A stretch of 64,000 bases of DNA from Oscillospiraceae bacterium (GTDB lineage: Bacteria; Bacillota; Clostridia; UMGS1883). Position 1 is the first letter of the stretch, and the number at the start of each line of letters is the position of its first letter. This document shows, piece after piece, positions 1-28,273 of this stretch. A program made the position numbers and the translations under genes. The notes beneath the pieces are model-generated. The model saw nothing but the letters and a program-made list of their open reading frames with translations, made no database searches and was not told the DNA's origin. The DNA lies in the NCBI GenBank assembly GCA_015068735.1, contig SVJW01000005.1:321-64320 (forward strand), written 5' to 3'.

Positions 1-1041
1 AATTTCTTGAATGTTTATCCCTTCATTTGCAAGCAATGATGCATGTGAATGTCGAAAATCGTGGATGCGAATTTTCTTTATCGCTGCAGTTTTTGCAAAC
101 TCTTTATTTCTGTTTTCAATAGTAGTATCGCGTAAAGGTTTTGCACCTCCACATACGCGAAAATTATCATTAAATCCGGGGTATGTCATATAGCGTTTTT
201 TGTGGTCTTGGAGAATTTTAAGCAAAGGAAAAGGAATTTGAATTATGCGTGCAGAACTGTAGCTTTTAGGACGAGTTTCTCTATCTCCACCTTTTTCCTT
301 TTGGTTTATACTTCTGTTAATATGTATATATCCATCCTTTATATCAGTCCATTTTAGAGCATGAATCTCTCCTTTTCTCATACCCATGTAAAAGGCAATT
401 GCAAAAAAGACGTAATATCCCCACTCTTTGTGTGTGTTTTCCTCTTGAGCTTTGTTAAGTGCTGCGGATAAAAAAAGCTTATATTCCTCAACTGTATAGA
501 AATCTATTTTTGGTTTTTCAGGGAACTCGTTAGGGTCTTTAAAATTCTTTACCTTTAAAAGATTGTTCTTGGGGATATAGTCCATTTCTACCCCCCAATT
601 TAAGAGAGAACGTAAGGCCGAATATATGTTTTGCTTATATCTAAGACTTAGTGGGTTACCGTTCTTTTGATTATTCATATTATCCACTTCGTTCTTCCAT
701 TCTTGAAACATGGGGACTGTAAGTTTTTTTACACGCTTATCTCCCAATTTTCCGAGCACATATTGCTCAATACGGGTCTTATTCTTATTAACAGTACTTT
801 CTTTTACTTCACCTTTTTTAGCAGAAACATAGAGGTCGAGAAGCTGTTTAACAGTAATTCCGGAAACTGTAGGAGTTTCTTTGACCTCGAATTCAAGACG
901 GGCTTCCAGTTCTTTCGCTTCGGCTTTGCCGTAGGCTATTCGTGTAGCTTTCTGATACTTCCCGAAATTGTCAGTATAATTTACTACAACACGATACTTT
1001 TGTTTTCCGTCCTTTGAGCCGTTTTCTTTATAAATAGGCAT
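1..1041 (-). CDS. Tyrosine integrase (3' end truncated by window edge)
   Basis: Absent from the ORF track because it has no stop inside the window. My minus-strand translation from ATG 1041-1039 (AAAAAGGAGTG upstream) stays open to position 1. It reads MPIYKENGSK...GMRKGEIHALKWTDI...RPKSYSSARII...IRIHDFRHSHASLLANEGINIQEI, matching tyrosine recombinase Arg and HxxR boxes. The catalytic Tyr would lie left of the window. Confidence 0.9.
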   Translation of the reverse strand, partial: MPIYKENGSKDGKQKYRVVVNYTDNFGKYQKATRIAYGKAEAKELEARLEFEVKETPTVSGITVKQLLDLYVSAKKGEVKESTVNKNKTRIEQYVLGKLGDKRVKKLTVPMFQEWKNEVDNMNNQKNGNPLSLRYKQNIYSALRSLLNWGVEMDYIPKNNLLKVKNFKDPNEFPEKPKIDFYTVEEYKLFLSAALNKAQEENTHKEWGYYVFFAIAFYMGMRKGEIHALKWTDIKDGYIHINRSINQKEKGGDRETRPKSYSSARIIQIPFPLLKILQDHKKRYMTYPGFNDNFRVCGGAKPLRDTTIENRNKEFAKTAAIKKIRIHDFRHSHASLLANEGINIQEI

Positions 1042-1308: not shown

Positions 1309-1962
1309 TTAAAATTCCACCTTACATTCTACTACTTTGCCGATAACTTCTATATATGTTTCTTTAGTATTATAAATTTGAATGTCATGTTTAGGATTGT
1401 ATGACTGAGGTATAAGCTGAACGATGTTACCTTCTTTTTTAAATCTTTTTACGGTAGCATCTTCTTTGTTTACCCTTACAACAGCGATTTCGCCGTTTTC
1501 AACCTCAGGTTGTCTTCGTACTATTATTGTGCTTCCATCACTTATCTGTGCAGCATTCATACTATCGCCTTTTACTCGCAAGGCGAAATATTCTGCTCCA
1601 CCGTTATGTTCTGTATATGTGTAGCCTTCTATATGTTCTTCTGCATATAAAGGAAGTCCTGCGGCAATACGACCAAGTATGGGGATCTCATGAATAATTG
1701 GATTGTAGGGAGTGCCGATGCTTTGATTGAAGGGAACAACATTAATATCTCGAAGATCTTCAGGAGAGATTCCCATGATTTCTAATGGAGAGACTTTCAA
1801 AACTTTTGCCAGCAAAGCAATTTTATCTCGTTTCATATTTTCTATATATCCAGTTTCCCATTTTTTTACTGTGCTTTTTCCAACACCAACGTATTTCCCA
1901 ACAGCTTCCAAAGTAAGTCCGAGTTCTTTACGCCTCTTTTCTATATCATAATTATTTGACAA
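1309..1962 (-). CDS. CI-like phage repressor (XRE HTH + S24 LexA-type autopeptidase)
   Basis: 217 aa. N-terminal HTH (LTLEAVGKYVGVGKSTVKKWE). C-terminal S24 motifs (RVKGDSM Ser nucleophile, ATVKRF Lys). TTG start 6 nt after GGAGGTG. Divergent from the cro-like gene. Confidence 0.9.
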   Translation of the reverse strand: MSNNYDIEKRRKELGLTLEAVGKYVGVGKSTVKKWETGYIENMKRDKIALLAKVLKVSPLEIMGISPEDLRDINVVPFNQSIGTPYNPIIHEIPILGRIAAGLPLYAEEHIEGYTYTEHNGGAEYFALRVKGDSMNAAQISDGSTIIVRRQPEVENGEIAVVRVNKEDATVKRFKKEGNIVQLIPQSYNPKHDIQIYNTKETYIEVIGKVVECKVEF

Positions 1963-1990
1963 CTATGACACCTCCTTATTCTTTATGATT

Positions 1991-2019
1991 AGTGTAACAT
2001 AAAAGTTTCGTTTATGCAA
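1991..2019 (-). promoter_or_regulatory. Candidate repressor promoter (TTGCAT-17-TACACT on minus strand)
   Basis: Minus strand -35 TTGCAT (2019-2014), 17-nt spacer, -10 TACACT (1996-1991), upstream of the CI TTG start. Confidence 0.45.
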
Positions 2020-2060
2020 CATATTTTTTAAAAAATACAAAAAAAGTTTCCAAAAAGGGA

Positions 2061-2089
2061 TTGACAGCCTTTAAAACGCGTGTTATACT
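2061..2089 (+). promoter_or_regulatory. Candidate early rightward promoter (TTGACA-17-TATACT)
   Basis: -35 TTGACA 2061-2066, 17-nt spacer, -10 TATACT 2084-2089, about 40 nt upstream of the cro-like ATG. Confidence 0.6.
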
Positions 2090-2091
2090 AA

Positions 2092-2109
2092 AAGTGTCCT
2101 AAAGGAAAC
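2092..2109 (+). promoter_or_regulatory. Operator-like repeat copy 1 (AAGTGTCCTAAAGGAAAC)
   Basis: 18-mer immediately after the -10. It recurs with 1 mismatch at 2328-2345. GTTTC/GAAAC half-sites also occur at 2005, 2046, 2341 and 2346. Confidence 0.4.
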
Positions 2110-2126
2110 AAAAGGAGGTGAATAAA

Positions 2127-2327
2127 ATGAAAAGTTGTTTGCTTAGAAGTAAAATTGTAGCAAAAGGAATGAAAATTGACCAGTTTTGCCGAGAGACAGG
2201 TATTAAAAAGACGTCACTCTACAGAAAACTTTCTGGGAAGACACAGTTTACTCGTGGCGAGATAGAACGTATCATTATTGAATTAGAACTTACTTCAGAA
2301 GAGATAATGGATATTTTTTTTGAATAG
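2127..2327 (+). CDS. Cro-like small HTH regulator
   Basis: 66 aa from ATG 2127 (AAAGGAGG 2111-2118). HTH-like KIDQFCRETGIKKTSLYRKLSG. Divergent from CI. Confidence 0.7.
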   Translation: MKSCLLRSKIVAKGMKIDQFCRETGIKKTSLYRKLSGKTQFTRGEIERIIIELELTSEEIMDIFFE

Positions 2328-2345
2328 AAGTGTCCTAAAAGAAAC
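2328..2345 (+). promoter_or_regulatory. Operator-like repeat copy 2 (AAGTGTCCTAAAAGAAAC)
   Basis: Direct repeat of 2092-2109, placed 1 nt after the cro-like stop. Followed by GAAACGAAACT, the reverse complement of AGTTTCGTTT at 2003-2012. Confidence 0.4.
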
Positions 2346-2627
2346 GAAACTGAAAATTGCACAAAATGAAACAGACCGATGTGCGAATCAGTCTGTTTGA
2401 GGGGTTACTTTGTGTTTTGTATCTTTTTTAATAAGTACGCTACTAAAAGACAGTTGCCATTACATAGAAACTTGCAGTTTAGGTGGCAAGGTCTAACTTC
2501 AGTAGACGCCATAGAGATAGGACACATGATTCCATTGTTCATATTGTTAACCTCCTTCCTTTAGGGCTTAACAATATTGTACCATAAATGAAACATTTAG
2601 TGGTGCACCGTAGAGGAGGTGATTGAG

Positions 2628-2816
2628 GTGAATGTAATAATTTTCGGGTTATGTCTTGTTTTTAGTTTGTTGTTTTTTTATTACTTGTTCCGTGAATTAA
2701 GCTTCGTGATAATCATTGTCTCTGCTTTGTGGGCATTCTTAGTTACATTGGTAGTGAAAGAATATTTGCCAATACTATTTTCAACCATGCAAGAATTGTT
2801 ACACCAAATAGAATAG
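2628..2816 (+). CDS. Small hydrophobic (2-TM) protein, hypothetical
   Basis: ORF 2619-2816. GGAGGTG lies at 2613-2619, so GTG 2628 is the better-spaced start. Very hydrophobic. Its 3' end overlaps the convergent gene 2743-3309, so one of the two calls may be wrong. Confidence 0.35.
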   Translation: MNVIIFGLCLVFSLLFFYYLFRELSFVIIIVSALWAFLVTLVVKEYLPILFSTMQELLHQIE

Positions 2817-3309
2817 CGAATACAAAGACAACGGTTTTGGCGAACAAGAATATAGCAGTAAAAATCCATTTTTCGTAAATATTTGCAAATTGATTATGAC
2901 GGATTCTGTATGACAATGTTCGTTTAGGATATCCTAACAAGCTACAAAGTCTGTTGCATCTGATATCTATGTAGCGGCACAACTCTTCATATGTATCTTG
3001 CCATACCTTTTCTTTTGATAGTCCTTCTCTGAGAAAATCTATGTGCTCACTTACGAAAAATGGAAGATATTCCGATTGGGAAAATGTGTTATCAATTTCA
3101 GACAGTAGCTTTTGTAGTTCTTCTACAGAAAGTTTCTTGTACAAAAAAGGAGAAAGAATCTTATACAAGGGGAAATATACATTTAAAAATAATTCTTTCT
3201 TGGTCGAAATTTGTACGGTCTTTATGATTACGGCAAAGCTGACTACAGTCACGATAATTGTTGTTAGAATTTCTAACATATTTGATTGGGTATTGCACAT
3301 AAAAATCAC
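2743..3309 (-). CDS. Hypothetical membrane protein, opposite orientation to early operon (moron candidate)
   Basis: 188 aa. N-terminal TM (LEILTTIIVTVVSFAVII) and two C-terminal TM segments. Start uncertain (GTG 3309 or ATG 3300). Confidence 0.55.
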   Translation of the reverse strand: MIFMCNTQSNMLEILTTIIVTVVSFAVIIKTVQISTKKELFLNVYFPLYKILSPFLYKKLSVEELQKLLSEIDNTFSQSEYLPFFVSEHIDFLREGLSKEKVWQDTYEELCRYIDIRCNRLCSLLGYPKRTLSYRIRHNQFANIYEKWIFTAIFLFAKTVVFVFAILFGVTILAWLKIVLANILSLPM

Positions 3310-3480
3310 AACCTTTCGGGACGATTATAACACAACTACATATTAAATACAAGGAGGTGATTATATTGAAAAAGTTTCTTAAGAAATAATAAAAAATGAC
3401 GGCGTAGCAGAAGCTACAACCGTCGCAAAAGTTTACAAACAAAGTATAACACAGATTAAAACAAAAAGCAAGTAGAAAGG

Positions 3481-3681
3481 ATGTTAATTATGGTAGATAA
3501 AAATAAATTACTCGCAACCAGAGATGTAATAATGTTTTTCTTAGGCAAGTCGGAATTAGATGCCGATGAATGTAAACAGGTACTTCAGATGTGTAACGAT
3601 GAGGTGGATGCAGCGGTAAGGCGTATGAGCATTACGGAAGTAAAGAGGGATGGTGATGACAGTGGCAAGGATTGCGATTAA
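3481..3681 (+). CDS. Hypothetical early protein
   Basis: 66-aa ORF, acidic C-terminus. ATG 3490 is better spaced from AAAGGA than ATG 3481. Confidence 0.45.
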   Translation: MLIMVDKNKLLATRDVIMFFLGKSELDADECKQVLQMCNDEVDAAVRRMSITEVKRDGDDSGKDCD

Positions 3682-3955
3682 GGACCTTAAAACCTGCCTA
3701 AGGATTTATTACACATATCCTGAAATCGGAAGTAAAGAGATAAAGGAACTTTTTGGAGTTGGTGACAATAAGGTTTGTAATCTTAAAAACCTTGTTCGTA
3801 AGGTACAAATCGAAAAAAACATAATGGTTCTGGATAAGCACAGTGTTAATACTGAAACTGCTTTTGAAGTGTGGGGTATTGACATAGGCGATATCGAGCG
3901 CAGGGTAAAGAAACTTGAGAAACTCGGGCTTTACGAAACGGAGGAAGCAGTATGA
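3650..3955 (+). CDS. Hypothetical early protein
   Basis: 101-aa ORF overlapping its neighbours in operon style. No recognisable motif. Confidence 0.5.
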   Translation: MVMTVARIAIKDLKTCLRIYYTYPEIGSKEIKELFGVGDNKVCNLKNLVRKVQIEKNIMVLDKHSVNTETAFEVWGIDIGDIERRVKKLEKLGLYETEEAV

Positions 3956-4116
3956 CTTGGTTATATATAACGGTAATGTGGTTTGCAGCATTGTTGGTAG
4001 CTGACGATATGGGGCTGGAGCATATCCACCCGGCAAAAGGTGTGTTTATTATTCTGGCACTTATCTACAATGTGGCATATACGATGTATAAATGGGAAAG
4101 GAAGTATAAAAGATGA
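3952..4116 (+). CDS. Small 2-TM membrane protein (54 aa), hypothetical
   Basis: Below the ORF-track cutoff. ATGA overlaps at both ends (3952-3955 and 4113-4116). MTWLYITVMWFAALLVADD...GVFIILALIYNVAYTMYKWERKYKR. Confidence 0.45.
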   Translation: MTWLYITVMWFAALLVADDMGLEHIHPAKGVFIILALIYNVAYTMYKWERKYKR

Positions 4117-4724
4117 AAAATTATATTTGTTTAGGTGGTAAGAAAATCGAACTTACAGCGGAGCAGGTTGCAGAGATGCAGAAATCGCTCGGGATAGGAC
4201 AGGTTAAGTTGAAAAACATTCCTATAGGGGAAACGTTTAAAGTTGGAGATTATGAGTTTGTTGTTCTTGATCGCTCGGAAGAAACAACAGCGGTTATTCT
4301 TAAAGATCTCTTACATAAAGAGAAGCAGTTCGGAAAGAACAATAACTTTGAAAACTCACATATTGATGAAATTTGCAAGAAGTTCAGTTGTGAGATTTCA
4401 GCGATAATTGGTGAAAACAATCTTATTGAACATACCGTGGACCTTACATCTGATGATGGTTTGAAAGACTACGGCAAAATCAAGAGAAAGATGTCTCTTC
4501 TTACAGCTAATCTCTATCGCCGTTACGTTGAAATACTGGACAAGCATAAAATAAAAGCTTGGTGGTGGTTGGCAACAGCATACAGTACGCCTACACATGA
4601 AAATGCTAACTGGGTAAAGTGCGTTTCGCCCGATGGTTGCATTTACAGCGGCTTCAATTACGACGGTACGTTTGGCGTTCGTCCGTTTTGTATCTTAAAT
4701 TCTAATATCTTTGTATCACGCTAA
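4113..4724 (+). CDS. DGR variable (target) protein 2; C-terminal lectin-like variable region (DUF6273-like architecture)
   Basis: 203 aa. C-terminus WWWLATAYSTP...CVSPDGCIYSGFNYDGTFGVRPF contains VR2. Paralog of the next gene. No signal peptide seen. Confidence 0.85.
   Translation: MKNYICLGGKKIELTAEQVAEMQKSLGIGQVKLKNIPIGETFKVGDYEFVVLDRSEETTAVILKDLLHKEKQFGKNNNFENSHIDEICKKFSCEISAIIGENNLIEHTVDLTSDDGLKDYGKIKRKMSLLTANLYRRYVEILDKHKIKAWWWLATAYSTPTHENANWVKCVSPDGCIYSGFNYDGTFGVRPFCILNSNIFVSR
4620..4686 (+). repeat. DGR variable repeat VR2
   Basis: 67 nt, collinear with TR 5677-5743. 13 substitutions, all at TR adenines. Confidence 0.9.
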
Positions 4725-4737
4725 GGAGGATAAAAAC

Positions 4738-5274
4738 ATGAAAGAAATGAAATTAACTGAAGTTATAAACGGTAAAACTTTTAAAATCGGTGATGTTGAG
4801 TTTATAAAGTTTTCCGAAGAAAACGGAGAAGTAACAGCTGTAGCAAAGGACATTGCTTTCCGTTCTCAGTTTGGAAAAAATAATAACCTCAAAGAGAGTT
4901 CGGTTCTCGAAAGACTTAAAAATGAATTCTTGCCGAAAATTGCAGAAGTTGTAGGTGAAGAAAATATCCTTGAACACAAAGTGGATTTAACAAGCCTTGA
5001 CGGGTTGAAAACATATGGAGATATGGTAAGTAAAATCAGTATTCCCACATTTGATTTTTACCGTGAGAACGTAAAGATTTTCGATGAATATAACCCTGAT
5101 ACCTGGTGGTGGCTTGCTACTCCCGATACAACACCGGAACATCTTAACGACTTCTGGTGCCGTTGCGTTTCGCCCGATGGTAACGTTAACTTCAGCAGCA
5201 ATTACGACGGTACGAATGGCGTTCGTCCGTTTTTGAAATTTGTATCTTCTATCTTTGTATCGGTTGAGGAATAA
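4738..5274 (+). CDS. DGR variable (target) protein 1
   Basis: 178 aa from ATG 4738 (AAGGAGG 4723-4729). C-terminus WWWLATPDTTP...CVSPDGNVNFSSNYDGTNGVRPF contains VR1. Confidence 0.9.
   Translation: MKEMKLTEVINGKTFKIGDVEFIKFSEENGEVTAVAKDIAFRSQFGKNNNLKESSVLERLKNEFLPKIAEVVGEENILEHKVDLTSLDGLKTYGDMVSKISIPTFDFYRENVKIFDEYNPDTWWWLATPDTTPEHLNDFWCRCVSPDGNVNFSSNYDGTNGVRPFLKFVSSIFVSVEE
5163..5230 (+). repeat. DGR variable repeat VR1
   Basis: 68 nt, collinear with TR 5676-5743. 8 substitutions, all at TR adenines. Confidence 0.9.
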
Positions 5275-5277
5275 AGT

Positions 5278-5646
5278 ATGGTTGACAAAGAACTGAAAGT
5301 TATTGTCAAAGCAAAAGAGTTAATGAAACATACGTATGTGCTTACATCCAATGCAAACAGATACCCGAAGAAGTTCAGACATTCTCTTGTGGATAGGATG
5401 CAGATTGTAAGTATGGATATATATGAGCTTTTGCTTGAATCTAATCGGATTAACAATAAAACCGAAAGATACTTCAGATGCGAGACAATAACAAAAGCTA
5501 TTATGAACTGCGATAAGCTTCAGACCTACATCGAATTATCAATGGAGTTGAAGTTACTGAATCCAAAATCGGCGGAGTATTGGTCGAAAATGGTGTCTGA
5601 TGTAAAGTTCATGTCTATAGCTTGGAGAACAGCTGAAAAGAAATAA
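5278..5646 (+). CDS. avd: DGR accessory variability determinant (Avd-like four-helix-bundle protein)
   Basis: 122 aa, basic and helical. Sits in the canonical position between target gene and TR. Resembles the Avd / 23S-rRNA-IVS protein family. Confidence 0.75.
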   Translation: MVDKELKVIVKAKELMKHTYVLTSNANRYPKKFRHSLVDRMQIVSMDIYELLLESNRINNKTERYFRCETITKAIMNCDKLQTYIELSMELKLLNPKSAEYWSKMVSDVKFMSIAWRTAEKK

Positions 5647-5675
5647 TCTATATAGGTTGTGCGTTGTATTTTTTC

Positions 5676-5743
5676 TTGCGTTTCGCCCGATGGTAACATT
5701 AACAACAACAACAATTACAACAATACGAATGGCGTTCGTCCGT
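5676..5743 (+). repeat. DGR template repeat (TR)
   Basis: TTGCGTTTCGCCCGATGGT AAC ATT AAC AAC AAC AAC AAT TAC AAC AAT ACG AAT GGCGTTCGTCCGT. Asn-codon-rich core with 21 adenines in 36 nt. Lies in the avd-RT spacer. Confidence 0.9.
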
Positions 5744-5850
5744 CCTGGTGGATTGTCAGACAGAGTAGGCATAAGCCGAAATCAGAGCACCACATCAAAA
5801 GAACGCACAACCTTTCTTTGAAAAAAGATAAACAAAGAGGATTATGTTGT

Positions 5851-6966
5851 ATGACCGATTTTGAGAAAGTAATTGATTTTAATAATATGTACCGTGCATA
5901 TCGCAGGTCGAAGTGTGGTAAAGGTTATAAAAGAAGTGCTGCACGGTTTAACATTATGGCTCTTGATGGCGTTAACGCTTTGATAGAGCAGTTAAAAAAC
6001 AAAACCTATAGAATATCTCCATACAATGAATTTACGGTTTATGAGCCGAAAGAACGTGTTATTAAGACAACATCTTTCAAGGATAAGGTCATACAGCATA
6101 GTTTATGTGATAATGTGATACTTCCCAAATTGCAGGAAATCTTTATTTTAGATAACTGTGCCGGGCAAAAAGGAAAAGGGACATTGTTTGGGCTTAACCG
6201 TCTGAGCAAGCAGATGAAAGCCTTTTATAAAAGATATGGACATAGTGGCTACATATTAAAGTGCGACATTTCGAAGTTCTTTTATAACATTTCTCATAGC
6301 CAACTGAAAGACATTGTTGAATATTATTTCTCTTATGACAGAGATATTTGTTGGTTGTGTAATCTGTTCATTGACAGCACAGAGGGGAAAGGAATTCCTT
6401 TAGGTAATCAGATAAACCAAGGCTTTGCTCTTTTATATTTAGACGGTATGGACAAGCTCATAACAGGCGAATTAGGTATAGAGTTTTACGGCCGTTATAT
6501 GGATGATTTCTATTTGATTCATCCGGATAAGCAATATCTGAAGCATTGCCTTGAAGTGGTAACGGAGTTCCTGCAAACGCTTGATTTGACTTTGAATGGG
6601 AAAACACAGATATTTCCCTTTAAAAACGGTGTAAGCTATCTTGGATTCCATACTTATGTAACGAACAGCGGAAAGGTAATACGAAAACTTAAAAACCAAA
6701 ACAAGAGAAATGCTCAGCGGAAGTTTTTAAAAATGGCAAAGTTAGTTGTTGCAGGTAGGCTTACGGAAGAAAAATTCTATGCTTCGTACAACGCTTGGAG
6801 AAATCACATATCACACGGCAATTGTTATAAATTAGGCAAACAGATGGATTTAAAAATAAATGAAATTTTGAAAGAGGTAAATAATATGGCTCAATATAAA
6901 ACTTGCCCTAATTGTGGTGCACATTTAGATCCGGGAGAAAAGTGTGATTGTGAGGAACCACCTTAA
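5851..6966 (+). CDS. DGR reverse transcriptase
   Basis: 371 aa from ATG 5851 (AAAGAGGA upstream). YMDD at 6496-6507. IPLGNQINQGFALLYL resembles the DGR-RT (I/L)GxxxSQ motif. C-terminal CPNCG...CDC Zn-ribbon tail. Confidence 0.9.
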   Translation: MTDFEKVIDFNNMYRAYRRSKCGKGYKRSAARFNIMALDGVNALIEQLKNKTYRISPYNEFTVYEPKERVIKTTSFKDKVIQHSLCDNVILPKLQEIFILDNCAGQKGKGTLFGLNRLSKQMKAFYKRYGHSGYILKCDISKFFYNISHSQLKDIVEYYFSYDRDICWLCNLFIDSTEGKGIPLGNQINQGFALLYLDGMDKLITGELGIEFYGRYMDDFYLIHPDKQYLKHCLEVVTEFLQTLDLTLNGKTQIFPFKNGVSYLGFHTYVTNSGKVIRKLKNQNKRNAQRKFLKMAKLVVAGRLTEEKFYASYNAWRNHISHGNCYKLGKQMDLKINEILKEVNNMAQYKTCPNCGAHLDPGEKCDCEEPP

Positions 6967-6982
6967 AAGGTAGGCGAAAGAA

Positions 6983-7399
6983 ATGGTACTCAGCTTAATG
7001 GATTTACCGCCTCGATATCGAGAACAGGCGGAAAGGCAGATTATTGAGAAAGAAAAAGCAAAAAAATCCAAGTACGGAAATGAAAAAGTAACTGTTAATG
7101 GCGTGCTTATTGACAGTAAGAAAGAAGCCCGACGGTATGAAGAGCTTATGGCGATGTTTGGGAAAGGTGAAATTGAAGATTTAAAGCTTCAGAATACATT
7201 TACCTTACAGAATGCATACACAACGCCTGAGGGCAAGCGAATAAGGGCTATAACATACAAAGCAGACTTTACATATTATAAGGACGGAAAATTCATTGTA
7301 GAGGATGTTAAGAGCCCTGTTACACGAAAGAAACCAGATTACAGGATGAAGGTCAAAATGATGCAGAATGTATTTAAGATAGAAGTTGTGGAGGTATAA
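6983..7399 (+). CDS. DUF1064-type phage protein (nuclease-like fold)
   Basis: 138 aa. KYGNEKVTVNGVLIDSKKEARRYEEL...YKADFTYY...VEDVKS matches the pattern I recall for DUF1064. Confidence 0.65.
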   Translation: MVLSLMDLPPRYREQAERQIIEKEKAKKSKYGNEKVTVNGVLIDSKKEARRYEELMAMFGKGEIEDLKLQNTFTLQNAYTTPEGKRIRAITYKADFTYYKDGKFIVEDVKSPVTRKKPDYRMKVKMMQNVFKIEVVEV

Positions 7400-7402
7400 A
7401 CG

Positions 7403-7576
7403 ATGAGAAAATGTAAGGTGTGCGGAATGGTCTTTGACGGTGACACAAGATACACAGAAATAAAGGGCGACAGTTACTGTGAGGATTGCATCCGTGAGAT
7501 GGACACAACTGATTTGCTTGAACTTCTTGATATTGAATTCACCTGCATTGGGTTTCCGGAACCTGAAAGATGTTAA
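7403..7576 (+). CDS. Small Zn-ribbon protein (57 aa)
   Basis: Below the ORF-track cutoff. MRKCKVCGMVFDGDTRYTEIKGDSYCEDCIREM... with CxxC...CxxC. Confidence 0.45.
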   Translation: MRKCKVCGMVFDGDTRYTEIKGDSYCEDCIREMDTTDLLELLDIEFTCIGFPEPERC

Positions 7577-14127: not shown

Positions 14128-17100
14128 TTGCACCGAAGTATGTTCGTTATGTGGAATAGAACACCCAAAAAGGGACTTGAACAAAATATACATATCTTAC
14201 GGACACGTATCTATATCATAGAGCAAGATATTGAAAAAGATGGCGGAATGATGAATATAATGAAGCTTATTTCTGCAATCGAGGGCAGAGGATATGGCTA
14301 TATAGGCTCCCAGAAATCCATTGATACTGCAAAGGCAGTAATGAACTTTGTGCAGGGCAGGGCTACAGAAGTTGATAGCTCACTTATAAGCAGAAGTAAT
14401 GGTGCTACAATGCTTCTTACGGCTATCGAGGGGAATAAAAAGGCGTGGGACAGTGTTGATAAGGCGGCAGGGCGTGAACTTGCTCCTGCTAAAACAAAAA
14501 CAACCCAAGGAATTCAAGATGTGGCAAAAGCTGTAAAAAACACAACAATATCCGAAGGAAATGTGTACACCAAAGACGGTATAAAGGCGACTATAGGTGA
14601 TGTCAAAATCGAAAACAATATTGTTGTAGATGCGGAAAGTGTTTCTTTTAAGAATGACGATGCAAAAGGATACGGAGTTCTTGAGAAATGGGCGACAGAA
14701 CTTAAAAAGCCAGTTAAACTTGTAAAAGGCTTGTACAATGAAAACGGAGATATACTTGACGGTGTGGAAACCGACAGCGGTATTTTCATCAATACAGAGG
14801 CGAAGAATCCCATAAAGTGGGCGGCGACACACGAATTCAGCCATACTATGAAAAAGAGTGCCGGTGAAGCATGGGCGAAATATCAGAACTTCGTAGTGGA
14901 CAAGATGAAGAAAGACGGTAGCTACTACGATGTATTCAATATGAAAGCTATTGCGTACGGAACAAGAGATGCAGCATACATCAATGAAGAAATTGCTTGC
15001 GATCACATCGGAGAAACCTTTGACAGTGTGGATGAGCTTGCAGACTTTATTAAAAAAGACAGAGGACTTGCGGTAAGAGTGCGTGACTTCTACTACAAAG
15101 CTCTTGACAAGCTCGGTCTCCTTGATGAAAAGAAAAAAGCACAACTTATGTGGCGTGATGCCTACAGAAAAGCTGTGCTGAATGTGAAGGATGGCAAAGT
15201 TGAGAGTACTGGGAAAACTGTTGAAAAAAGCGTAAGCGGAACGAGAGTGAGCGAAACTAACGGTGATGACAAAATTACTGCTGATATGGATGAGCATAAA
15301 AGGGCGGAAATATTAAAAAAGACCTCGCTTAATGTTGTGGAAGCAAAGTCAGATGCACTAAAATTGACACTTGAAGAAATTAATATCTTAGAAAGTAAGT
15401 GCAAAAGCAAAGCACAAGGCGTTATGGAAGAACTATGTGAGAAGTTCGGAGTAGTCAAAGAAGGATACACAAACAACAACATTGAGTTGGAATTTAATTA
15501 TTCAAAAGGTTCTCTCAGGGAAAGTGTACATAAGCAGAACGAAAGAAATCCTAATTTTCAGGATTTCGCAAAAATGCTCACAGTTTTCGATTCAGTCGTA
15601 AAAAATGCGGTGCCTATTGAAAGTCATACAGATAAATACAAAGGAACAAAAAAAGAAAATCCCAATCTTAAACAAAGTTATGTGCTTCTAAGTGCATTTA
15701 AGAGTGGCGAAGATATTGCTCCGGTAGAGTTGAATATTCGAGAGTTTAAAAAGTCGGTAGGAAGCAGATTATATATGTCTGTAACTCTTAAAAAAATAAG
15801 AGCCGACATCTTGGCGCCATACGATGTAAAAGAACAACGAAATGGCACTCCGTCAACTCTCAATATCAGTATAGCAGAGCTTATAAAAAATGTCAATCCT
15901 TCTGATGGAGATTTCTTAAGATATGCTCCTGATGAAATGCTTAATGAGGCGCAAATTGAATCAAAGAGAGAAGCTTTGGAGAGAGACAGACTGAAGATTG
16001 AGGGTTTAAAAAAATCAATAAGAGGTACCCGACTCAGCGATGTTGACAGCTCACCTGCAGGTGAAAGCGTGGACACCACTACCGAAGATACATCGCAGAA
16101 ATTCATTCCTCCCGGTGCTGAGCCGAGGCGTGATGTGAAAGTACCTGAAAGCGTGGAAGAAGATACAAAAGTAAGGCAGTTTGCGAGAACGGCGGCAGAG
16201 GCGGAAACACTTACTGATAAAACGGCAGAGGGTGTACTGGAAAATGTAGAAAAGGGTAAGTTTAACTATACACCTATATCGAATAAGAGTGCAATGAAGA
16301 ATGCCTACGCTTCACTTGACACAATGGGAGTTGAGTGGGTGGAAAAGAAGGTAAACGGTGCGATTTCTTCCCACAATCTTGATAAGAAAACGGTAGCGAT
16401 GGCAGAAGTGTTATTGGAGAAGTATAGTCAGGAAGGGCAGGAAGAAAAGGCGCAGAGGCTTATTATTGACTTTGCGGCAGAAAGCACCAGAACGGCACAG
16501 ATCCTGCAGGCAATAAGTATGCTGAAGAAGTTAGACCCGAACTACGAGGTAGCTTACATAGAGAAGGTTATTCAGAACCTTAAAGAAGAGATTGTCGAAA
16601 GAAACAATAAGAAGTTCGGAAAGAAACATTCGACAGATATAGAGGTATCGGAAGAGCTTAAAACAAAGCTTATGGAAGCAAAGACCGAAGAAGAGAGAGA
16701 AACAATCCGAGATGAAATCTATACGGAGATTGCAGACCAGTTACCTAATACATGGATAAACAAGTGGAATGCGTGGCGATATATGTCAATGCTCGCCAAT
16801 GCGAGAACCCATGTGCGAAATGTGGTAGGTAACACCGCCTTTATGCCGATGATTGCTACAAAGAATATCGCAGCTAAGTTTGTGGAGCCGATTGTGGCGA
16901 AAGCGACAGGTGGCAAGATAGAGCGAAGCAAAACCTTTATAGTGCCAAAGAAGTACAGGCAGTTTGCAATGGAAGATGTAGAGGTAATGCGAAAGGAACT
17001 GCAAGGCGGTGGTAAACACAATCCGTCGGATATTATAAGGGATAAGCAGAGGGTGTTTGACACCAAAGCTCTTGAATGGATGAGGGTGAAAGTGGGAGAA

Positions 17101-19110
17101 AGCCTTGAAGCTGAAGACTGGATTTTCCTTAGACACCATTACAAAGCAGCTCTCAGTAATTACCTTGCGGCAAACAAGATTGACCTTGACAATATGAGTG
17201 AGGCTACGCTTGACAGGGCGAGAAGAGTCGCTATTAAAGAAGCGCAGAGAAATACATACCGAGATGCGAGTGCGTTTGCAAATGCGCTGAGTAACTTCTC
17301 AAAGAAAAATGCAGGTGCGGCATTATTGGTAGAAGGCTTGATGCCTTTTAAGAAAACCCCTGTAAATATATTAAAAAGAAGTGTAGAATATAGCCCTGCA
17401 GGACTTGTTAAGGCACTGACAACGGATTTATACAAGGTTAGTAAAGGCGATATGACTGCCAGTGAGTATATAGACAGAATATGCTGCTCTTTTACGGGAA
17501 CGGGAGTTGTAGCACTGGGAATGTTTTTAAAATCTCTTGGCGTTATTTCCGGTGCATCAGATGACGACAAGGAAAAGGAATTTGACGAGCTTACAGGTGT
17601 ACAGAATTATTCATTGACAATTGGTGGTCACAACTATACGCTCGACTGGTTGGCGCCGTTTTCTCTTCCATTCTTCACAGGTGTGGAGATGCAGAACACA
17701 ATAGATAAAGGTGAAAATATAGGTTTTCGTAACGGGGTTGAGGCACTCAGCAATATGTCAGAACCGTTTTTTGAAATGAGTATGTTACAGGGACTGACGG
17801 GTACTGTTGATACTATTAAGCAGTCTAACTCTTCCGAAATTGCCGGAAATGTTGCGTGGAATATTGGCACAAATTATGTTAATCAAGCTGTACCGACTCT
17901 TTTCGGACAGGTTGCAAGAACTGTTGACGGAACTCAGAGAAGAAGCTACGATGACAAGAATAAAGATGTACCGAGTGATGTACAGTATTTTGTGCAGGGC
18001 TTGATGAAGAAGATTCCGGGGGATTCGCAGAACCTTGAGCCTTATGTTGATGAGTGGGGCAGAGAAAAGAAAACTGAGAATGTGGGTGTAAGAGCTTTTC
18101 AGAATATGCTTTCGCCCGGCTATTATTCTACTGTGAAGATAAGTCCTATGGAAAAAGAGCTTAAAAGGCTTTACGGTGAAGTCGGAGACGAGGACGGTAT
18201 GAAGATATTCCCGACAGCAGCGGCAAAAAACTTTGAACTTGACGATGGCACAAAGAAGAATCTTACTGCAACGGAATATACTGAGATGCAGACGGTACAG
18301 GGACAGACGGCATATAATCTTTTGACAGAGATTGTTAAGACCGATGAATACAAGAAAGCTGATGATTACACGAAGGGTGTAATTGTAAGCAAGGTATATG
18401 AGGCGGCAAGTGCTAATGCGAGATATACGGTATCTGAGGGAGAAAAAACAAGTAACACTGCATGGGTTAATGAAACCGTTGGAATGCTTCAAGATGGAGA
18501 TTCAAAAGGTGCAATGAATCATATTATAAAAAGTGGCGTGGAAAAGGTTGAAGGAGAAAAGTTTACAGCCGCAAAGGACGGATACAAAGATAAATTCGAG
18601 TATGATGCATCGCAGTACAGTGAAGCGGAAATAAAGATATTTGATACTGTGGAAAGTGACTGGGCAGGTTACCATGCAAGTGTTGATATGGGCAGAGAAT
18701 TGGAAGATTCGGATTATAAATATATCAGGTTGTATGAGGAGAATCTTTCCGATGATATGCCGATTGAAGAATATGCAGGCGTAAGGGCATATGTAAAAAC
18801 AGAAGCAATTAAATCCGACCCCGAGGGTAGCGAGAATAATTTGTCATCAAAAGAACTTCAAGATTACCTTGACAGTACAGATTACAATGAAAATGTAAAG
18901 GGAGCATTATTTATGGCTCTTGGAGGTTCTACGTGGATTAATCCCTATACGGGACTTAAGAATAACGGCGAAGTACCAAAGGGAAAGAGCGGTTCCGGTA
19001 GCAGTTCGGGCGGAAGCTCCGGTGGAAGAACTTCCTCAAGATCGAGTTCGAGGACAACCTCAAGAACAACAAGGTCTACAAGATCCACAACAAGGCGGTC
19101 TAACAGATAA
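14128..19110 (+). CDS. Giant (about 1620-1660 aa) virion-associated polyvalent-type protein with zincin HExxH motif and Ser/Arg/Thr-rich basic tail
   Basis: Uninterrupted 4.98-kb ORF. HEFSH at 14830-14844. C-terminal GKSGSGSSSGGSSGGRTSSRSSSRTTSRTTRSTRSTTRRSNR. The start is ambiguous: the track uses TTG 14128, and ATG 14248 (MMNIMKL) is an alternative. It occupies the slot upstream of scaffold and capsid. Confidence 0.75.
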   Translation: MHRSMFVMWNRTPKKGLEQNIHILRTRIYIIEQDIEKDGGMMNIMKLISAIEGRGYGYIGSQKSIDTAKAVMNFVQGRATEVDSSLISRSNGATMLLTAIEGNKKAWDSVDKAAGRELAPAKTKTTQGIQDVAKAVKNTTISEGNVYTKDGIKATIGDVKIENNIVVDAESVSFKNDDAKGYGVLEKWATELKKPVKLVKGLYNENGDILDGVETDSGIFINTEAKNPIKWAATHEFSHTMKKSAGEAWAKYQNFVVDKMKKDGSYYDVFNMKAIAYGTRDAAYINEEIACDHIGETFDSVDELADFIKKDRGLAVRVRDFYYKALDKLGLLDEKKKAQLMWRDAYRKAVLNVKDGKVESTGKTVEKSVSGTRVSETNGDDKITADMDEHKRAEILKKTSLNVVEAKSDALKLTLEEINILESKCKSKAQGVMEELCEKFGVVKEGYTNNNIELEFNYSKGSLRESVHKQNERNPNFQDFAKMLTVFDSVVKNAVPIESHTDKYKGTKKENPNLKQSYVLLSAFKSGEDIAPVELNIREFKKSVGSRLYMSVTLKKIRADILAPYDVKEQRNGTPSTLNISIAELIKNVNPSDGDFLRYAPDEMLNEAQIESKREALERDRLKIEGLKKSIRGTRLSDVDSSPAGESVDTTTEDTSQKFIPPGAEPRRDVKVPESVEEDTKVRQFARTAAEAETLTDKTAEGVLENVEKGKFNYTPISNKSAMKNAYASLDTMGVEWVEKKVNGAISSHNLDKKTVAMAEVLLEKYSQEGQEEKAQRLIIDFAAESTRTAQILQAISMLKKLDPNYEVAYIEKVIQNLKEEIVERNNKKFGKKHSTDIEVSEELKTKLMEAKTEEERETIRDEIYTEIADQLPNTWINKWNAWRYMSMLANARTHVRNVVGNTAFMPMIATKNIAAKFVEPIVAKATGGKIERSKTFIVPKKYRQFAMEDVEVMRKELQGGGKHNPSDIIRDKQRVFDTKALEWMRVKVGESLEAEDWIFLRHHYKAALSNYLAANKIDLDNMSEATLDRARRVAIKEAQRNTYRDASAFANALSNFSKKNAGAALLVEGLMPFKKTPVNILKRSVEYSPAGLVKALTTDLYKVSKGDMTASEYIDRICCSFTGTGVVALGMFLKSLGVISGASDDDKEKEFDELTGVQNYSLTIGGHNYTLDWLAPFSLPFFTGVEMQNTIDKGENIGFRNGVEALSNMSEPFFEMSMLQGLTGTVDTIKQSNSSEIAGNVAWNIGTNYVNQAVPTLFGQVARTVDGTQRRSYDDKNKDVPSDVQYFVQGLMKKIPGDSQNLEPYVDEWGREKKTENVGVRAFQNMLSPGYYSTVKISPMEKELKRLYGEVGDEDGMKIFPTAAAKNFELDDGTKKNLTATEYTEMQTVQGQTAYNLLTEIVKTDEYKKADDYTKGVIVSKVYEAASANARYTVSEGEKTSNTAWVNETVGMLQDGDSKGAMNHIIKSGVEKVEGEKFTAAKDGYKDKFEYDASQYSEAEIKIFDTVESDWAGYHASVDMGRELEDSDYKYIRLYEENLSDDMPIEEYAGVRAYVKTEAIKSDPEGSENNLSSKELQDYLDSTDYNENVKGALFMALGGSTWINPYTGLKNNGEVPKGKSGSGSSSGGSSGGRTSSRSSSRTTSRTTRSTRSTTRRSNR

Positions 19111-20198: not shown

Positions 20199-21224
20199 AT
20201 GTTCAGATTAAATATTCAGCACTTTGCTGCAGGTGAAAACGTACATACCACTTCCGGTATGGCGGCAAACAGCACAGGTGAGGTAACTCCCTACGGGGAA
20301 AGCGGCGGACTTTCCGCCGAAATGAAAACCTATTACTCCGATTATCTTATTGATATGGCGGAGCCTAAGTTGGTACATGATCAGTTCGGTCAGAAAGTAC
20401 CGATTCCCAAGAATAAGGGTAAGGTGGTGGAGTTTCGTAAGTACGATCCTCTTCCTGCTATTACTACCCCTCTTACTGAAGGTGTTACTCCTGAAGGTCA
20501 GAAGCTTGATGTAAAGACTATTACTGCAGAAGTTAAGCAGTACGGTGGCTTTATTGAGCTTTCTGATATCATTCAGCTTACTGCTATCGACAATAACCTT
20601 GTACAGGCTACAAAGCTTCTTGGCGGTCAGGCAGGAAGAACACTTGATACCATCGTAAGAGAAGTTCTTGCAGGCGGTACAAACGTACAGTTTGCAGAAG
20701 GTCAGGTTGACAGTCGTGATGCTCTTGTAGGAGGTCAGGCCGAAGGCAACCACTATCTTACAGTTGATGCGGTAAGAAAAGCAGTTCGTACTCTTAAGAG
20801 ACACAACGCCGAGACTATCAACGGTTCCTTTGTTGGTATTATTCATCCTGATGCAGCGTATGACCTTATGAGTGATCCCAAGTGGGTTAATGTAAAGACT
20901 TACTCCGACCCCGAGGGCATTTATCAGGGTGAAATCGGCAAGATTGAAAATGTCCGTTTCGTAGAAACAAGCGAAGCTAAGATTTTCGAGGGAGAAGGCG
21001 CTAACGGCGTTGACGTATATGCTACTCTTATCCTTGGCGAAAATGCTTACGGTTCCACCGAGATTTCCGGTGGCGGTCTTCGTCATATCGTTAAGCAGCT
21101 CGGCTCTGCCGGTGCTGCAGATCCTCTTGACCAGAGAGGTACAGCAGGCTGGAAGGCTACAAAGGCGGCTGTAAGACTTGTTGAGCCTTATATGGTTCGT
21201 ATCGAGACTGCAGCAAGTTTGTGA
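20199..21224 (+). CDS. Major capsid protein (N4-gp56-family / HK97-fold type)
   Basis: 341 aa. YYSDYLIDMAEPKLVHDQFGQKVPIPKNKGKVVEFRKY...TPLTEGVTPEG...GGFIELSD matches my recollection of the N4-gp56 capsid family. Strong codon bias. Confidence 0.8.
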   Translation: MFRLNIQHFAAGENVHTTSGMAANSTGEVTPYGESGGLSAEMKTYYSDYLIDMAEPKLVHDQFGQKVPIPKNKGKVVEFRKYDPLPAITTPLTEGVTPEGQKLDVKTITAEVKQYGGFIELSDIIQLTAIDNNLVQATKLLGGQAGRTLDTIVREVLAGGTNVQFAEGQVDSRDALVGGQAEGNHYLTVDAVRKAVRTLKRHNAETINGSFVGIIHPDAAYDLMSDPKWVNVKTYSDPEGIYQGEIGKIENVRFVETSEAKIFEGEGANGVDVYATLILGENAYGSTEISGGGLRHIVKQLGSAGAADPLDQRGTAGWKATKAAVRLVEPYMVRIETAASL

Positions 21225-26445: not shown

Positions 26446-27180
26446 ATGAAATTATTAAGTGTAGAAGAGTTTAAGGGATATATATTCTCGCTGAAGGTGA
26501 CAAGAAGTGTTAATAAAATACAGCTTCATCATACTTGGGAGCCGAGCTATGATAATTTTAATGGTAGTAACCATTTAGCTTTACAGAAAGGTATGCGCAA
26601 TCACCATGTGAATACCAATGGATATTCGGATATTGCTCAGCATTTCACGATTTTCCCTGACGGAAAGATTTGTACCGGACGCAACATCAATTCAATTCCT
26701 GCAGGAATAAAGGGAGCTAACACAGGCGCAATTTGTATTGAATGCCTGGGTAACTTCGATGTTGGCGGTGACGTAATGACTGTCGAGCAGAAAAATGCAA
26801 TTGTGAGCGTTGTAAAGATTCTGCTTGACAGGTTCGGTCTTGATGCAAAGACGGGAGTTGTATATCATGCGTGGTGGAGCTCTGACCAAAAGGCACTTGG
26901 TACATATGTTCCTGGTAAATCTGTAAAAACCTGTCCCGGTACAGCGTTCTTCGGTGGAAATACAAGGGAAGCTTTTGAAAAGAATTTACTACCTTTGTTA
27001 GAAGTAAAGAAGACGCTTCTTGAAACAGGGAACGATATCGTCTGGGAATTGATGAACGGTCCTCTTAAGGTTCAGATAAGCGAAGTTCAGAAGGCGGTCA
27101 AAGCTTTGGACCAGGCGAAGAATAATCCGGAGTATAATTCGTTGTACTGGATAATTTATAAGATTGTGAATAACAGGTAA
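26446..27180 (+). CDS. Endolysin, N-acetylmuramoyl-L-alanine amidase (Amidase_2/PGRP type)
   Basis: 244 aa. IQLHHTWEPS...HHVNTNGYSDIAQHFTIFPDGKICTGR...ICIECLGNFD is typical of amidase_2. Confidence 0.85.
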   Translation: MKLLSVEEFKGYIFSLKVTRSVNKIQLHHTWEPSYDNFNGSNHLALQKGMRNHHVNTNGYSDIAQHFTIFPDGKICTGRNINSIPAGIKGANTGAICIECLGNFDVGGDVMTVEQKNAIVSVVKILLDRFGLDAKTGVVYHAWWSSDQKALGTYVPGKSVKTCPGTAFFGGNTREAFEKNLLPLLEVKKTLLETGNDIVWELMNGPLKVQISEVQKAVKALDQAKNNPEYNSLYWIIYKIVNNR

Positions 27181-28008: not shown

Positions 28009-28225
28009 AATTAGGCCTCCATTTAGAATGTGAATTCTAAAAAGAAGTTCCCTGTGTTATGTACGATTTTTGTACGAATTTTCAAAAAACCGCTAATTTT
28101 TATTTTGAAATAATTAAGCGTGAAAGTAAAAAAGGAGTAGAAAAAACCGAATATAAAGGCGTTTGTAATGAATGAAAAAACAAAGAAAATCGATTTAAAA
28201 AAGGGTGCTTTGTTCCATCCTCTCC

Positions 28226-28273
28226 CACCACAAAAAAATCCTCGTACGATAGTACGGGGATTTTTTTGTGGTG
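28226..28273. terminator. Long bidirectional intrinsic terminator (22-bp stem, A/T tracts inside the stem)
   Basis: CACCACAAAAAAATCCTCGTAC-GATA-GTACGGGGATTTTTTTGTGGTG, one G.T mismatch. Downstream of the minus-strand lipoprotein gene. Confidence 0.6.

Follow-up and report, generated by a model that had tools for sequence, protein, structure and literature searches.

Evidence for a structurally complete diversity-generating retroelement with one template and two DUF6273 targets in the early region of a gut Clostridia prophage

Introduction

Does a run of four genes in the genome of a gut bacterium encode a machine for protein diversification, or do the repeats within it reflect paralogy beside an unrelated reverse transcriptase (RT)? 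The question is raised by positions 4113-6966 of a 64,000-nucleotide stretch of an Oscillospiraceae genome (contig SVJW01000005.1, positions 321 to 64,320; hereafter the window), where two related genes, a small open reading frame (ORF), a non-coding repeat and an RT gene follow one another on the forward strand. An earlier note on this DNA had proposed that the segment is a complete diversity-generating retroelement (DGR), in which one template repeat (TR) supplies adenine-mutagenised sequence to two variable repeats (VRs). Our analysis finds all of the sequence-testable defining components of such an element. We therefore regard it as highly probable that 4113-6966 is a structurally complete DGR, carried among the early genes of a temperate phage of roughly 28 kb that is integrated in the genome of a gut Clostridia member (Oscillospiraceae-like), and that it operates by the mechanism set out in the Discussion.

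Results

Template and variable repeats differ only at template adenines

The TR (5676-5743) is a non-coding sequence of 68 nt with 22 adenines that lies between avd and the RT gene. VR1 (5163-5230) occupies the 3' end of target gene 1 (TG1, 4738-5274), where it encodes residues 143-165 (CVSPDGNVNFSSNYDGTNGVRPF), and VR2 (4620-4686) occupies the 3' end of target gene 2 (TG2, 4113-4724), where it encodes residues 170-192 (CVSPDGCIYSGFNYDGTFGVRPF). VR1 aligns without gaps to TR 5676-5743 over 68 nt with 8 mismatches (6 A>G and 2 A>T), while VR2 aligns, also without gaps, to TR 5677-5743 over 67 nt with 13 (7 A>G and 6 A>T). Each of the 21 mismatches falls on a TR adenine (13 A>G, 8 A>T, 0 A>C); the probability that the same numbers of randomly placed changes would all strike adenines is 4.3e-5 for VR1, 2.0e-8 for VR2 and about 1e-12 for both jointly.

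This computational realignment reproduces the adenine-only pattern described in the earlier note: the 8 + 13 changes recur, no mismatch at any other base appears, and the core codon strings quoted there for the three repeats are exact. One detail changes, in that the TR/VR2 pairing has the 67-nt length that the note gave it, with a register that begins at TR 5677 and not at 5676. The coordinates of the four coding sequences (4113-4724, 4738-5274, 5278-5646 and 5851-6966) match those in the list of ORFs. The flanks TGCGTTTCGCCCGATGGT and GGCGTTCGTCCGT, said to be identical in the three copies, indeed show no difference among TR, VR1 and VR2. The second of these is the shared 3' block, 13 nt long, adenine-free and G+C-rich, after which the VRs continue with TTTT and the TR with CCTG.

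All 22 TR adenines occupy the first or second position of a codon in the target frame, creating 13 diversifiable codons, 9 of them AAY, from which mutation to a stop codon is impossible. Computed from these 13 adenine-containing codons, about 1e13 protein variants are possible per VR. A scan of the 64-kb window with an adenine-degenerate form of the TR returned exactly three copies, namely the TR, VR1 and VR2, with 0 expected by chance, and hence no further VR in the window.

The TR is also in frame with the RT gene. Reading from a GTG at 5659 to the RT stop encounters no stop codon, which produces a mechanical ORF of 435 residues (5659-6966). We place the real RT start at 5851, because a ribosome-binding site (AAGAGGA) precedes the ATG there and because the alignment to the Bordetella phage DGR RT supports it.

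The reverse transcriptase and Avd match their counterparts in BPP-1

The RT gene (5851-6966) encodes 371 residues. The closest solved structure is 8ub7_A, the RT of the Bordetella phage DGR (bRT, a 328-residue chain), which matches RT residues 5-302 with E = 1e-31; among the other Protein Data Bank (PDB) matches, a group II intron RT reaches 1e-9 and a retron-type RT 7e-6. This difference favors a DGR-type enzyme over a group II intron or retron RT, as the earlier note had held. Family searches matched phrog_1423 at 3e-103 and RVT_1 at 53.4 bits. The NCBIfam search returned no DGR-RT model for this protein; its best-scoring model, a group II intron maturase, reached 78 bits where the cutoff is 300, and DRT models were likewise far below threshold. 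On the strength of the best structural-database match, membership of the RT in the DGR clade is supported.

The YMDD motif and the LGNQINQ box reported earlier were verified at 6496-6507 and 6400-6420, respectively, and the arginine equivalent to R74 is kept. The signature motif of DGR RTs is [I/V/L]GxxxSQ (PMC7826257), of which the box here retains L, G and Q, with N in place of S. Among 112 related RTs the box reads LGNQxxQ, its invariant Q preceded by N, A or S, and LGNQINQ is its commonest form. The box looks like a clade variant of the DGR motif, and we do not take its departure from the signature as an argument against DGR membership.

At its C-terminus (6886-6966) the RT carries a zinc-ribbon-like CxxC...CxC tail of 26 residues (MAQYKTCPNCGAHLDPGEKCDCEEPP), upstream of which an RBS-like AAAGAGG plus an ATG occur in frame. 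The 112 related RTs end at about 340-357 residues, except for that of locus L092, which shares the tail. This tail may be a small downstream ORF that became fused to the RT through loss of a stop codon.

Both sequence and fold searches identify the ORF at 5278-5646 (122 residues), which the note had called Avd-like, as avd, the accessory variability determinant. A hidden Markov model search against PHROG matched phrog_3206, 'Avd protein of DGR', at 4.9e-20. The AlphaFold2 model is a four-helix bundle (pLDDT 93.5) that Foldseek superposes on BPP-1 Avd (8ub7_B) with a TM-score of 0.79 and a root-mean-square deviation of 2.2 Å; 4dwl matches with TM-scores of 0.76-0.85, and the PF05635-family structures 2gsc and 2rld also match.

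Covarying RNA helices surround the template

To describe the RNA, we aligned the region from the avd stop to the RT start in 39 non-identical relatives with MAFFT. A 12-bp duplex, first detected as an inverted repeat, encloses the TR by pairing 5654-5665 with 5802-5813. Across the 39 sequences 97% of its cells are paired, and 10 of the 12 pairs show compensatory double changes. In 500 column shuffles these values were never reached, and shifting the two strands against each other by 1-3 columns left 33-48% paired. The BPP-1 ribonucleoprotein, as seen by cryo-EM, contains a template:primer duplex between the 3' part of the TR and the spacer that ends at the priming adenosine; 2 nt past this adenosine, an 11-bp duplex of a TR-upstream segment with the spacer forms the "cPRT Stop", which is followed by a short stem-loop and A-minor adenosines (bioRxiv 10.1101/2023.10.23.563531). 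By comparison, 5654-5665 would correspond to the avd strand and 5802-5813 to the Sp strand of the cPRT Stop.

Directly 3' of the TR, the sequence UGGUG (5746-5750) forms the template side of a candidate template:primer duplex with CAUCA (5793-5797), which runs into a family-conserved CAAAAG (5796-5801) where we place the candidate priming adenosine. Its three TR-proximal pairs are formed in 96% of cells, and one of them shows a compensatory change. Within CAAAAG, C5796, A5797, A5799 and A5800 are invariant across the alignment and A5798 is nearly so. The candidate priming position lies 4 nt upstream of the putative Stop duplex, compared with 2 nt in BPP-1.

Two further elements complete the structure. 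The spacer block AGAGUAGGC-AUAA-GCCGAAAUCA (5762-5784) contains a 3-bp hairpin, 5768-5770 with 5775-5777, that is 98% paired and has compensatory changes in 3 of 3 pairs. Past the bracketing duplex lies the stem-loop UCUUU-GAAA-AAAGA (5815-5819 paired with 5824-5828) and then an unpaired UAAA (5829-5832), so that the whole element spans 5815-5832. In the RNAalifold register of this stem-loop, alignment pairs 212-228 and 214-226 have each changed on both sides in 7 sequences, pair 213-227 is CG in 37 of 39, and the GAUAAA that follows is nearly invariant. Folding 5647-5850 as a single sequence gave a stability not significantly above that of shuffles (z = -1.47). Support for the RNA structure therefore comes from covariation and not from folding energy. 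The helices are supported in this way, and their functions would follow from BPP-1 by analogy.

The segment 5751-5872 also aligns end to end with Rfam RT-2 (RF03077), a motif of structured RNA whose name reflects its occurrence with reverse transcriptase genes; a search of the 351-nt region gave E = 1.6e-6. The two have in common the GUCAGACAGAGUAGGC...GCCGAAAUCAG hairpin block, whose hairpin in our spacer resembles the 5' hairpin of RT-2, a small hairpin followed by UAAA, and an A/U-rich 3' end. The RT-2 model begins after the TR and so excludes the TR-bracketing duplex.

Other pairings are conceivable in this region. The 3' strand of the bracketing duplex (5802-5809, AACGCAC...) could also pair with the TR 3' block GGCGUUCG (5731-5738), and the motif GCGUU is found at both ends of the TR as well as upstream of it. 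In the distant relatives L059, L062, L065-L069, L076, L078 and L082, the segment just 3' of the TR (e.g., CUGUAUCAUACAG) can form a local hairpin or, alternatively, pair with a GAUACA beside the conserved AAAAG. These mutually exclusive post-TR pairings might represent resting and active conformations of the RNA.

The targets are small paralogous DUF6273 proteins

TG1 consists of 178 residues, and the entire protein is one DUF6273, C-type-lectin-like domain; TG2, at 203 residues, comprises a single DUF6273 domain with a 29-residue N-terminal extension. Against a cutoff of 23.5 bits, DUF6273 (PF19789) scores 28.8 bits for TG1 and 23.8 bits for TG2, and phrog_9958 matches them at 3.6e-35 and 8.3e-39, respectively. 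The two are paralogs with 46% identity. Neither contains a hydrophobic or transmembrane segment (maximum Kyte-Doolittle value 0.85) or a signal-peptide-like N-terminus.

The AlphaFold2 model of TG1 (pLDDT 89.6) places strands 150-153 and 159-162 inside the VR-encoded part, where confidence is lower. Its fold matches the DUF6273-bearing IgA peptidase 9qa6 (E = 5e-4) and, more weakly, the C-terminal domain of Legionella Lcl and the lectin domains of CD23 and CD94; comparison with viral DUF6273 proteins gave E-values down to 6e-9. Searching PDB sequences with a target-family profile produced no meaningful match. In 41 TG1 homologs the variation is concentrated in CVSPxGxIxxxxYxxxxGVRPF, which is the VR segment, and the remainder is conserved. 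The most likely role of the targets, judged from what has been proposed for other gut-phage DUF6273 targets, is ligand or receptor binding for the phage. In the literature we found no experiment locating small DUF6273-only targets in virions.

Variable repeats of related cassettes differ mainly at template adenines

The cassette is seen in more than 140 related loci from prophages of Oscillospiraceae and other Clostridia, in each case among early genes. An RT search retrieved 80 viral and 80 genome loci at 56-88% identity, with hosts among Oscillospiraceae, Faecousia, Acutalibacteraceae, Ruminococcus and other Clostridia metagenome-assembled genomes, many from ruminant guts. TR/VR analysis covered the 66 viral loci that have DNA upstream of the RT start. 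In 61 of these a short TR of 67-89 nt, ending 84-146 nt before the RT start, accompanies one or two upstream VRs, and 1,258 of 1,383 TR-VR substitutions (91%) occur at TR adenines. The order target-avd-RT is kept in 74 of the 80 genome loci, mostly with two targets. A search with TG1 gave 1,681 family matches, nearly all of them in single-member clusters at 90% identity.

Four pairs of loci with identical TR-spacer regions allowed us to compare VR change directly. L080 and L091 differ at 12 of 89 VR positions, all adenines, compared with 2.2% elsewhere, and L055 and L058 at 15 of 89, again all adenines (3.5% elsewhere). In the remaining pairs adenine positions predominate: 27 differences at A and 3 others over 129 nt for L065/L090 (5.5% elsewhere), and 28 at A and 10 others over 130 nt for L083/L087 (2.2% elsewhere). 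Since loci with the same TR and spacer differ in their VRs at adenines, the family is active or was so recently.

The substitution spectrum at TR adenines, taken from TR-VR pairs in L012-L091, is 56% A>G, 37% A>T and 7% A>C. We considered whether the missing A>C changes in the window (0 of 21) represent a new enzymatic property and rejected this, given the 7% in the family and the same direction of bias in bRT, for which dG is the least misincorporated nucleotide in vitro (PMC7826257). As a separate observation, AAY codons in the family hardly ever change to Thr, Pro or Ala, which would need A>C at the second codon position, and do change to Arg, Leu and His, which need it at the first; this suggests either position-dependent misincorporation or selection.

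Searches for the element itself gave less. Megablast of the cassette against deposited phages returned nothing, and the exact TR-spacer pattern had no match in the metagenome contig collection. Five independent metagenome contigs (L176-L180) start at 4791-4876, inside TG1 and 105-190 nt downstream of VR2, and carry VR1 and TR as in the window. Their shared start may result from assembly breakage at a triplicated repeat; we do not read it as a sign of VR heterogeneity.

The cassette lies in the early region of a prophage

The host element resembles a temperate phage whose integrase gene (about 1-1041, minus strand) is cut by the start of the window and is visible in contig L001. It is followed by a CI/LexA-type repressor gene (1309-1962, minus strand) and a cro-like gene (2118-2327, forward strand). 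A strong sigma-70-like promoter precedes the latter at 2061-2089 on the forward strand (TTGACA-17-TATACT with TG; 11 of 12 hexamer matches) and is the only strong one of this type in 1900-7500. No terminator-like site was found on the forward strand from this promoter to 7500. Because of this promoter before the cro-like gene and the lack of a terminator-like site, we infer that the cassette is co-transcribed with the early operon, 2061-2089 probably being the early rightward promoter that drives it.

Downstream of the DGR follow genes for a DUF1064 protein, a YqaJ-like exonuclease, an HNH/DUF968 protein, a replication organiser, a single-stranded DNA-binding protein (SSB) and a DNA methylase. 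Among the 80 genome loci, too, the neighbours are early genes in varying arrangement (SSB, RecT, YqaJ, replication organiser, methylase and repressor), and a capsid gene was never found within 7 kb of the cassette. In the window the major head protein gene lies at 20199-21224 and an amidase gene at 26446-27180, and host-looking genes begin at about 29.4 kb. The morphogenesis region includes a 1660-residue ORF with a TTG start (14128-19110) that matches nothing in Pfam or PHROG, and the large ORFs that we scanned included no recognisable terminase or portal.

A 17-bp exact repeat occurs at 28214-28230, about 1 kb past the amidase gene, and at 1054-1070 of L001 and L002, some 90 nt past the integrase gene. 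As a putative attL/attR core it would delimit a prophage of about 28.4 kb. L001 and L002 contain the same prophage with identical VRs, and the genes left of the integrase differ (PocR/AraC-type in L001, a PALP enzyme in L002), the two contigs (L001 1-814, L002 1-817) becoming dissimilar about 240 nt outside the putative att core. This difference could stem from insertion in different contexts, from variation between strains or from a chimeric assembly.

Discussion

A model for diversification

Our results are consistent with the following model. TG2, TG1, avd, the TR and the RT gene would be transcribed together, probably from the cro-side early promoter at 2061-2089. In the transcript, the 12-bp duplex 5654-5665/5802-5813 would close an RNA domain that holds the TR and most of the spacer and is followed by the GAAA-capped stem-loop and unpaired adenosines; of these predicted elements, the duplex and the spacer hairpin block are supported by covariation. 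If the system behaves as BPP-1 does, an RT-Avd complex would bind the TR-region RNA and synthesize cis-primed cDNA from a spacer adenosine in the conserved CAUCAAAAG, paired just 3' of the TR, with synthesis stopping at the bracketing duplex. The confinement of mismatches to adenines suggests that the RT copies the 68-nt TR faithfully save at its 22 adenines. The mutagenised cDNA would then displace the matching 67-68 nt at the 3' end of TG1 or TG2, the adenine-free 13-nt block GGCGTTCGTCCGT and the 5' block TGCGTTTCGCCCGATGGT serving as guides for homing. The predicted outcome is the re-randomisation of 13 codons in a surface beta-hairpin of two paralogous DUF6273 proteins, within the range of variants computed above and with no stop codon.

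Alternative explanations

Several results weigh against this reading of the locus. Avd scores 43.6 bits with the NCBIfam model DivGenRetAVD (2.8e-11; cutoff 80) and 4e-5 with Pfam bAvd, both below the curated thresholds, and neither the single sequence nor a 43-sequence family profile finds a PDB sequence relative of it. No stable hairpin occurs 3' of the VRs, where the minimum free energies of -2.6 and -1.2 kcal/mol are weaker than those of shuffles; a target site of the BPP-1 type has a hairpin or cruciform there, next to an IMH in the VR that differs from the IMH* of the TR. The outer two pairs of UGGUG:CAUCA are 63% paired and poorly aligned across the family, and the template:primer duplex and the priming nucleotide are likened to the TR:Sp arrangement of BPP-1 by analogy only. 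The RT-2 match over 5751-5872 scores 34.1 bits (E = 1.8e-5), short of the gathering cutoff of 40, and lacks the large 3' helix, which takes up about 100 positions of the model; the segment resembles RT-2 without qualifying as a curated member. Finally, VR1, VR2 and the TR are identical in about 19 contigs from at least 15 samples (JGI, ENA and Logan), and each target is the sole member of its 90% cluster among 15 billion proteins.

The simplest challenge to a DGR would be that the three repeats arose by paralogy or gene conversion beside an unrelated retroelement with a group II intron or retron RT. The 46% identity of TG1 and TG2 leads one to expect some common sequence, and the best NCBIfam model of the RT is the sub-threshold group II intron maturase. 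Yet the TR is non-coding and is the sole copy with A at all 22 positions, every mismatch is at an adenine, and the flanks of 18 and 13 nt are perfectly conserved in paralogs whose remainder has diverged by 54%. Moreover, the bRT match is 22 orders of magnitude better than that of any group II intron RT, and an Rfam search found no intron RNA domains, msr/msd or other Rfam family. The adenine-only mismatches and the bRT match refute ordinary paralogous repeats beside such an RT, an origin to which we assign almost no probability.

A DGR that looks intact could nevertheless be silent or defunct, its adenine-specific differences recording ancestral activity. The identical contigs and single-member target clusters described above are what such an element would leave, and adenine-degenerate scans of viral, genome and metagenome contig collections, which hold no copy of the element, gave no alternative VR states. 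On the other hand, all four ORFs are intact and have ribosome-binding sites, the catalytic YMDD and the LGNQxxQ box are preserved, this copy can still form the RNA helices, and the 22 TR adenines are retained at codon positions 1 or 2. Close relatives show VR-specific and adenine-specific differences, rare variants may be hidden in consensus assemblies of lysogens, and repression in the prophage state would silence a cassette that depends on an early lytic promoter. The samples behind the 19 or so contigs seem, with some uncertainty, to come from few projects and perhaps from one strain or source, making them weak replicates. We consider a silent element rather unlikely. Because these contigs share identical VRs, the evidence for current activity comes from the relatives. 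Of the earlier note's suggestion that the DGR has been active on both targets, past activity thus holds as a historical inference, and ongoing activity of this copy does not follow; nor do the uniform contigs demonstrate that it is inactive.

A different question is where the targets act. Instead of serving as receptor-binding proteins of the virion, they could be early cytoplasmic, non-structural binders, for instance in anti-defence or host takeover, that are diversified for an intracellular arms race. The cassette's position between the lysogeny switch and the recombination/replication genes fits this idea, as do the early-gene neighbours across 80 genome loci with their distant capsid genes, the uninterrupted stretch between the early promoter and the targets, and the single DUF6273 domain with no signal peptide, transmembrane segment or recognisable virion-attachment domain. 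However, DUF6273 is found in Hoc-like tentaclins and in annotated receptor-binding or tail proteins (PMC10743442), and the small DUF6273-only targets of nd4, nd12, Lelie and CP11 were deemed Mtd-like binders by the authors who described them (PMC10743442, PMC11792537). Gene position is weak evidence for expression time or localisation, and small proteins without adaptors can still dock onto virions. Cytoplasmic binders of this kind are, in our judgement, unlikely. The broader notion that anchor-less early-region targets are not virion components, and act instead as intracellular or released binders in counter-defence or host manipulation, seems to us quite improbable; if true, it would define a new functional class of DGR target in phages. 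Ligand or receptor binding on behalf of the phage remains our preferred role for TG1 and TG2 within an element that we continue to regard as a complete DGR.

Implications

The element provides a compact example of a DGR, with a 68-nt TR and two targets in 2.85 kb, from a large and mostly uncultured prophage family of animal and human guts. The bracketing duplex covaries strongly over 39 diverged elements, which supports, independently and by comparison, the cPRT Stop architecture known from the BPP-1 cryo-EM work, and part of the DGR spacer is linked to the orphan Rfam motif RT-2. The location of lectin-like targets in an early region raises the question of what DUF6273 targets bind, and when. 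The finding leaves the current understanding of DGRs unchanged.

Comparison with known systems

The cassette is organized much like the prototype DGR, that of Bordetella phage BPP-1 (mtd-avd-TR-brt). Target, avd, TR and RT occur in the same order, the RT is homologous to bRT over about 300 residues, and the Avd proteins share a four-helix-bundle fold (TM 0.76-0.85). In both systems the VR lies at the C-terminus of a target with a C-type-lectin fold, the TR is built of AAY codons, the differences are confined to adenines, and dG is the least used misincorporation. The likeness extends to the RNA, where a TR-bracketing duplex of about 11-12 bp is followed by a stem-loop and adenosines and is preceded immediately by a TR-3':spacer duplex. 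In contrast, the TR of BPP-1 measures 134 nt and serves one target, whereas 68 nt serve two tandem targets here. These are single-domain DUF6273 proteins of 178-203 residues without the N-terminal beta-prism and beta-sandwich of Mtd. The upstream strand of the duplex falls inside avd in BPP-1 and in the avd-TR intergenic spacer here, the hairpin that follows the VR in BPP-1 has no equivalent, tail-fibre neighbours are replaced by an early region, and the RT box reads IGSLTSQ in bRT and LGNQINQ here.

Closer in targets are the gut phages nd4 and nd12, in which a single TR supplies both a large 'tentaclin' and a small 'target2' that consists of DUF6273 alone (Baykov et al. 2023, PMC10743442). 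Like the present element, they have two VRs per TR and DUF6273 in both targets, and in target2, too, the VR makes up a beta-hairpin at the C-terminal end of one globular C-lectin-like domain. Among named deposited RTs, that of nd12 is closest to this one (49.6% identity), and the nd12 target2 gene is likewise distant from the tail genes. TG1 is about 31-33% identical to target2 of nd4 and nd12; the identity to the closest deposited targets is about 30%. The systems differ in that nd4 and nd12 have an Ig-domain tentaclin, which is lacking here, and their targets of 234 and 294 residues exceed the 178 and 203 residues of TG1 and TG2, both of which are small, tandem and directly upstream of avd. 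Furthermore, their RT cassette follows the tail module, while the whole cassette lies in the early region in our prophage.

DGRs with DUF6273 targets have also been described in the Faecalibacterium prophages Lelie, CP11, Roos and Pioen (PMC11792537) and in a DGR hotspot of Toutatisvirus (bioRxiv 10.1101/2024.10.15.618418). These, too, are temperate phages of Oscillospiraceae-type gut Clostridia with the VR at the DUF6273 C-terminus, and Lelie, CP11 and Toutatis have two VRs per TR. Their RTs are 35-37% identical to ours, and they differ in pairing one large target with one small one, often far apart (17 kb in Toutatis). One phage DGR screen required repeats of at least 90 nt (PMC11792537). 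The TR here, at 68 nt, and those of its relatives, at 67-89 nt, fall below this minimum, and therefore such elements can be missed by a screen of that type. DUF6273-targeting DGRs, including those with two targets per TR, are thus already published, and the cassette is a further example; what is notable about it is the short TR, the two tandem single-domain targets, the early-region placement and the LGNQINQ box.

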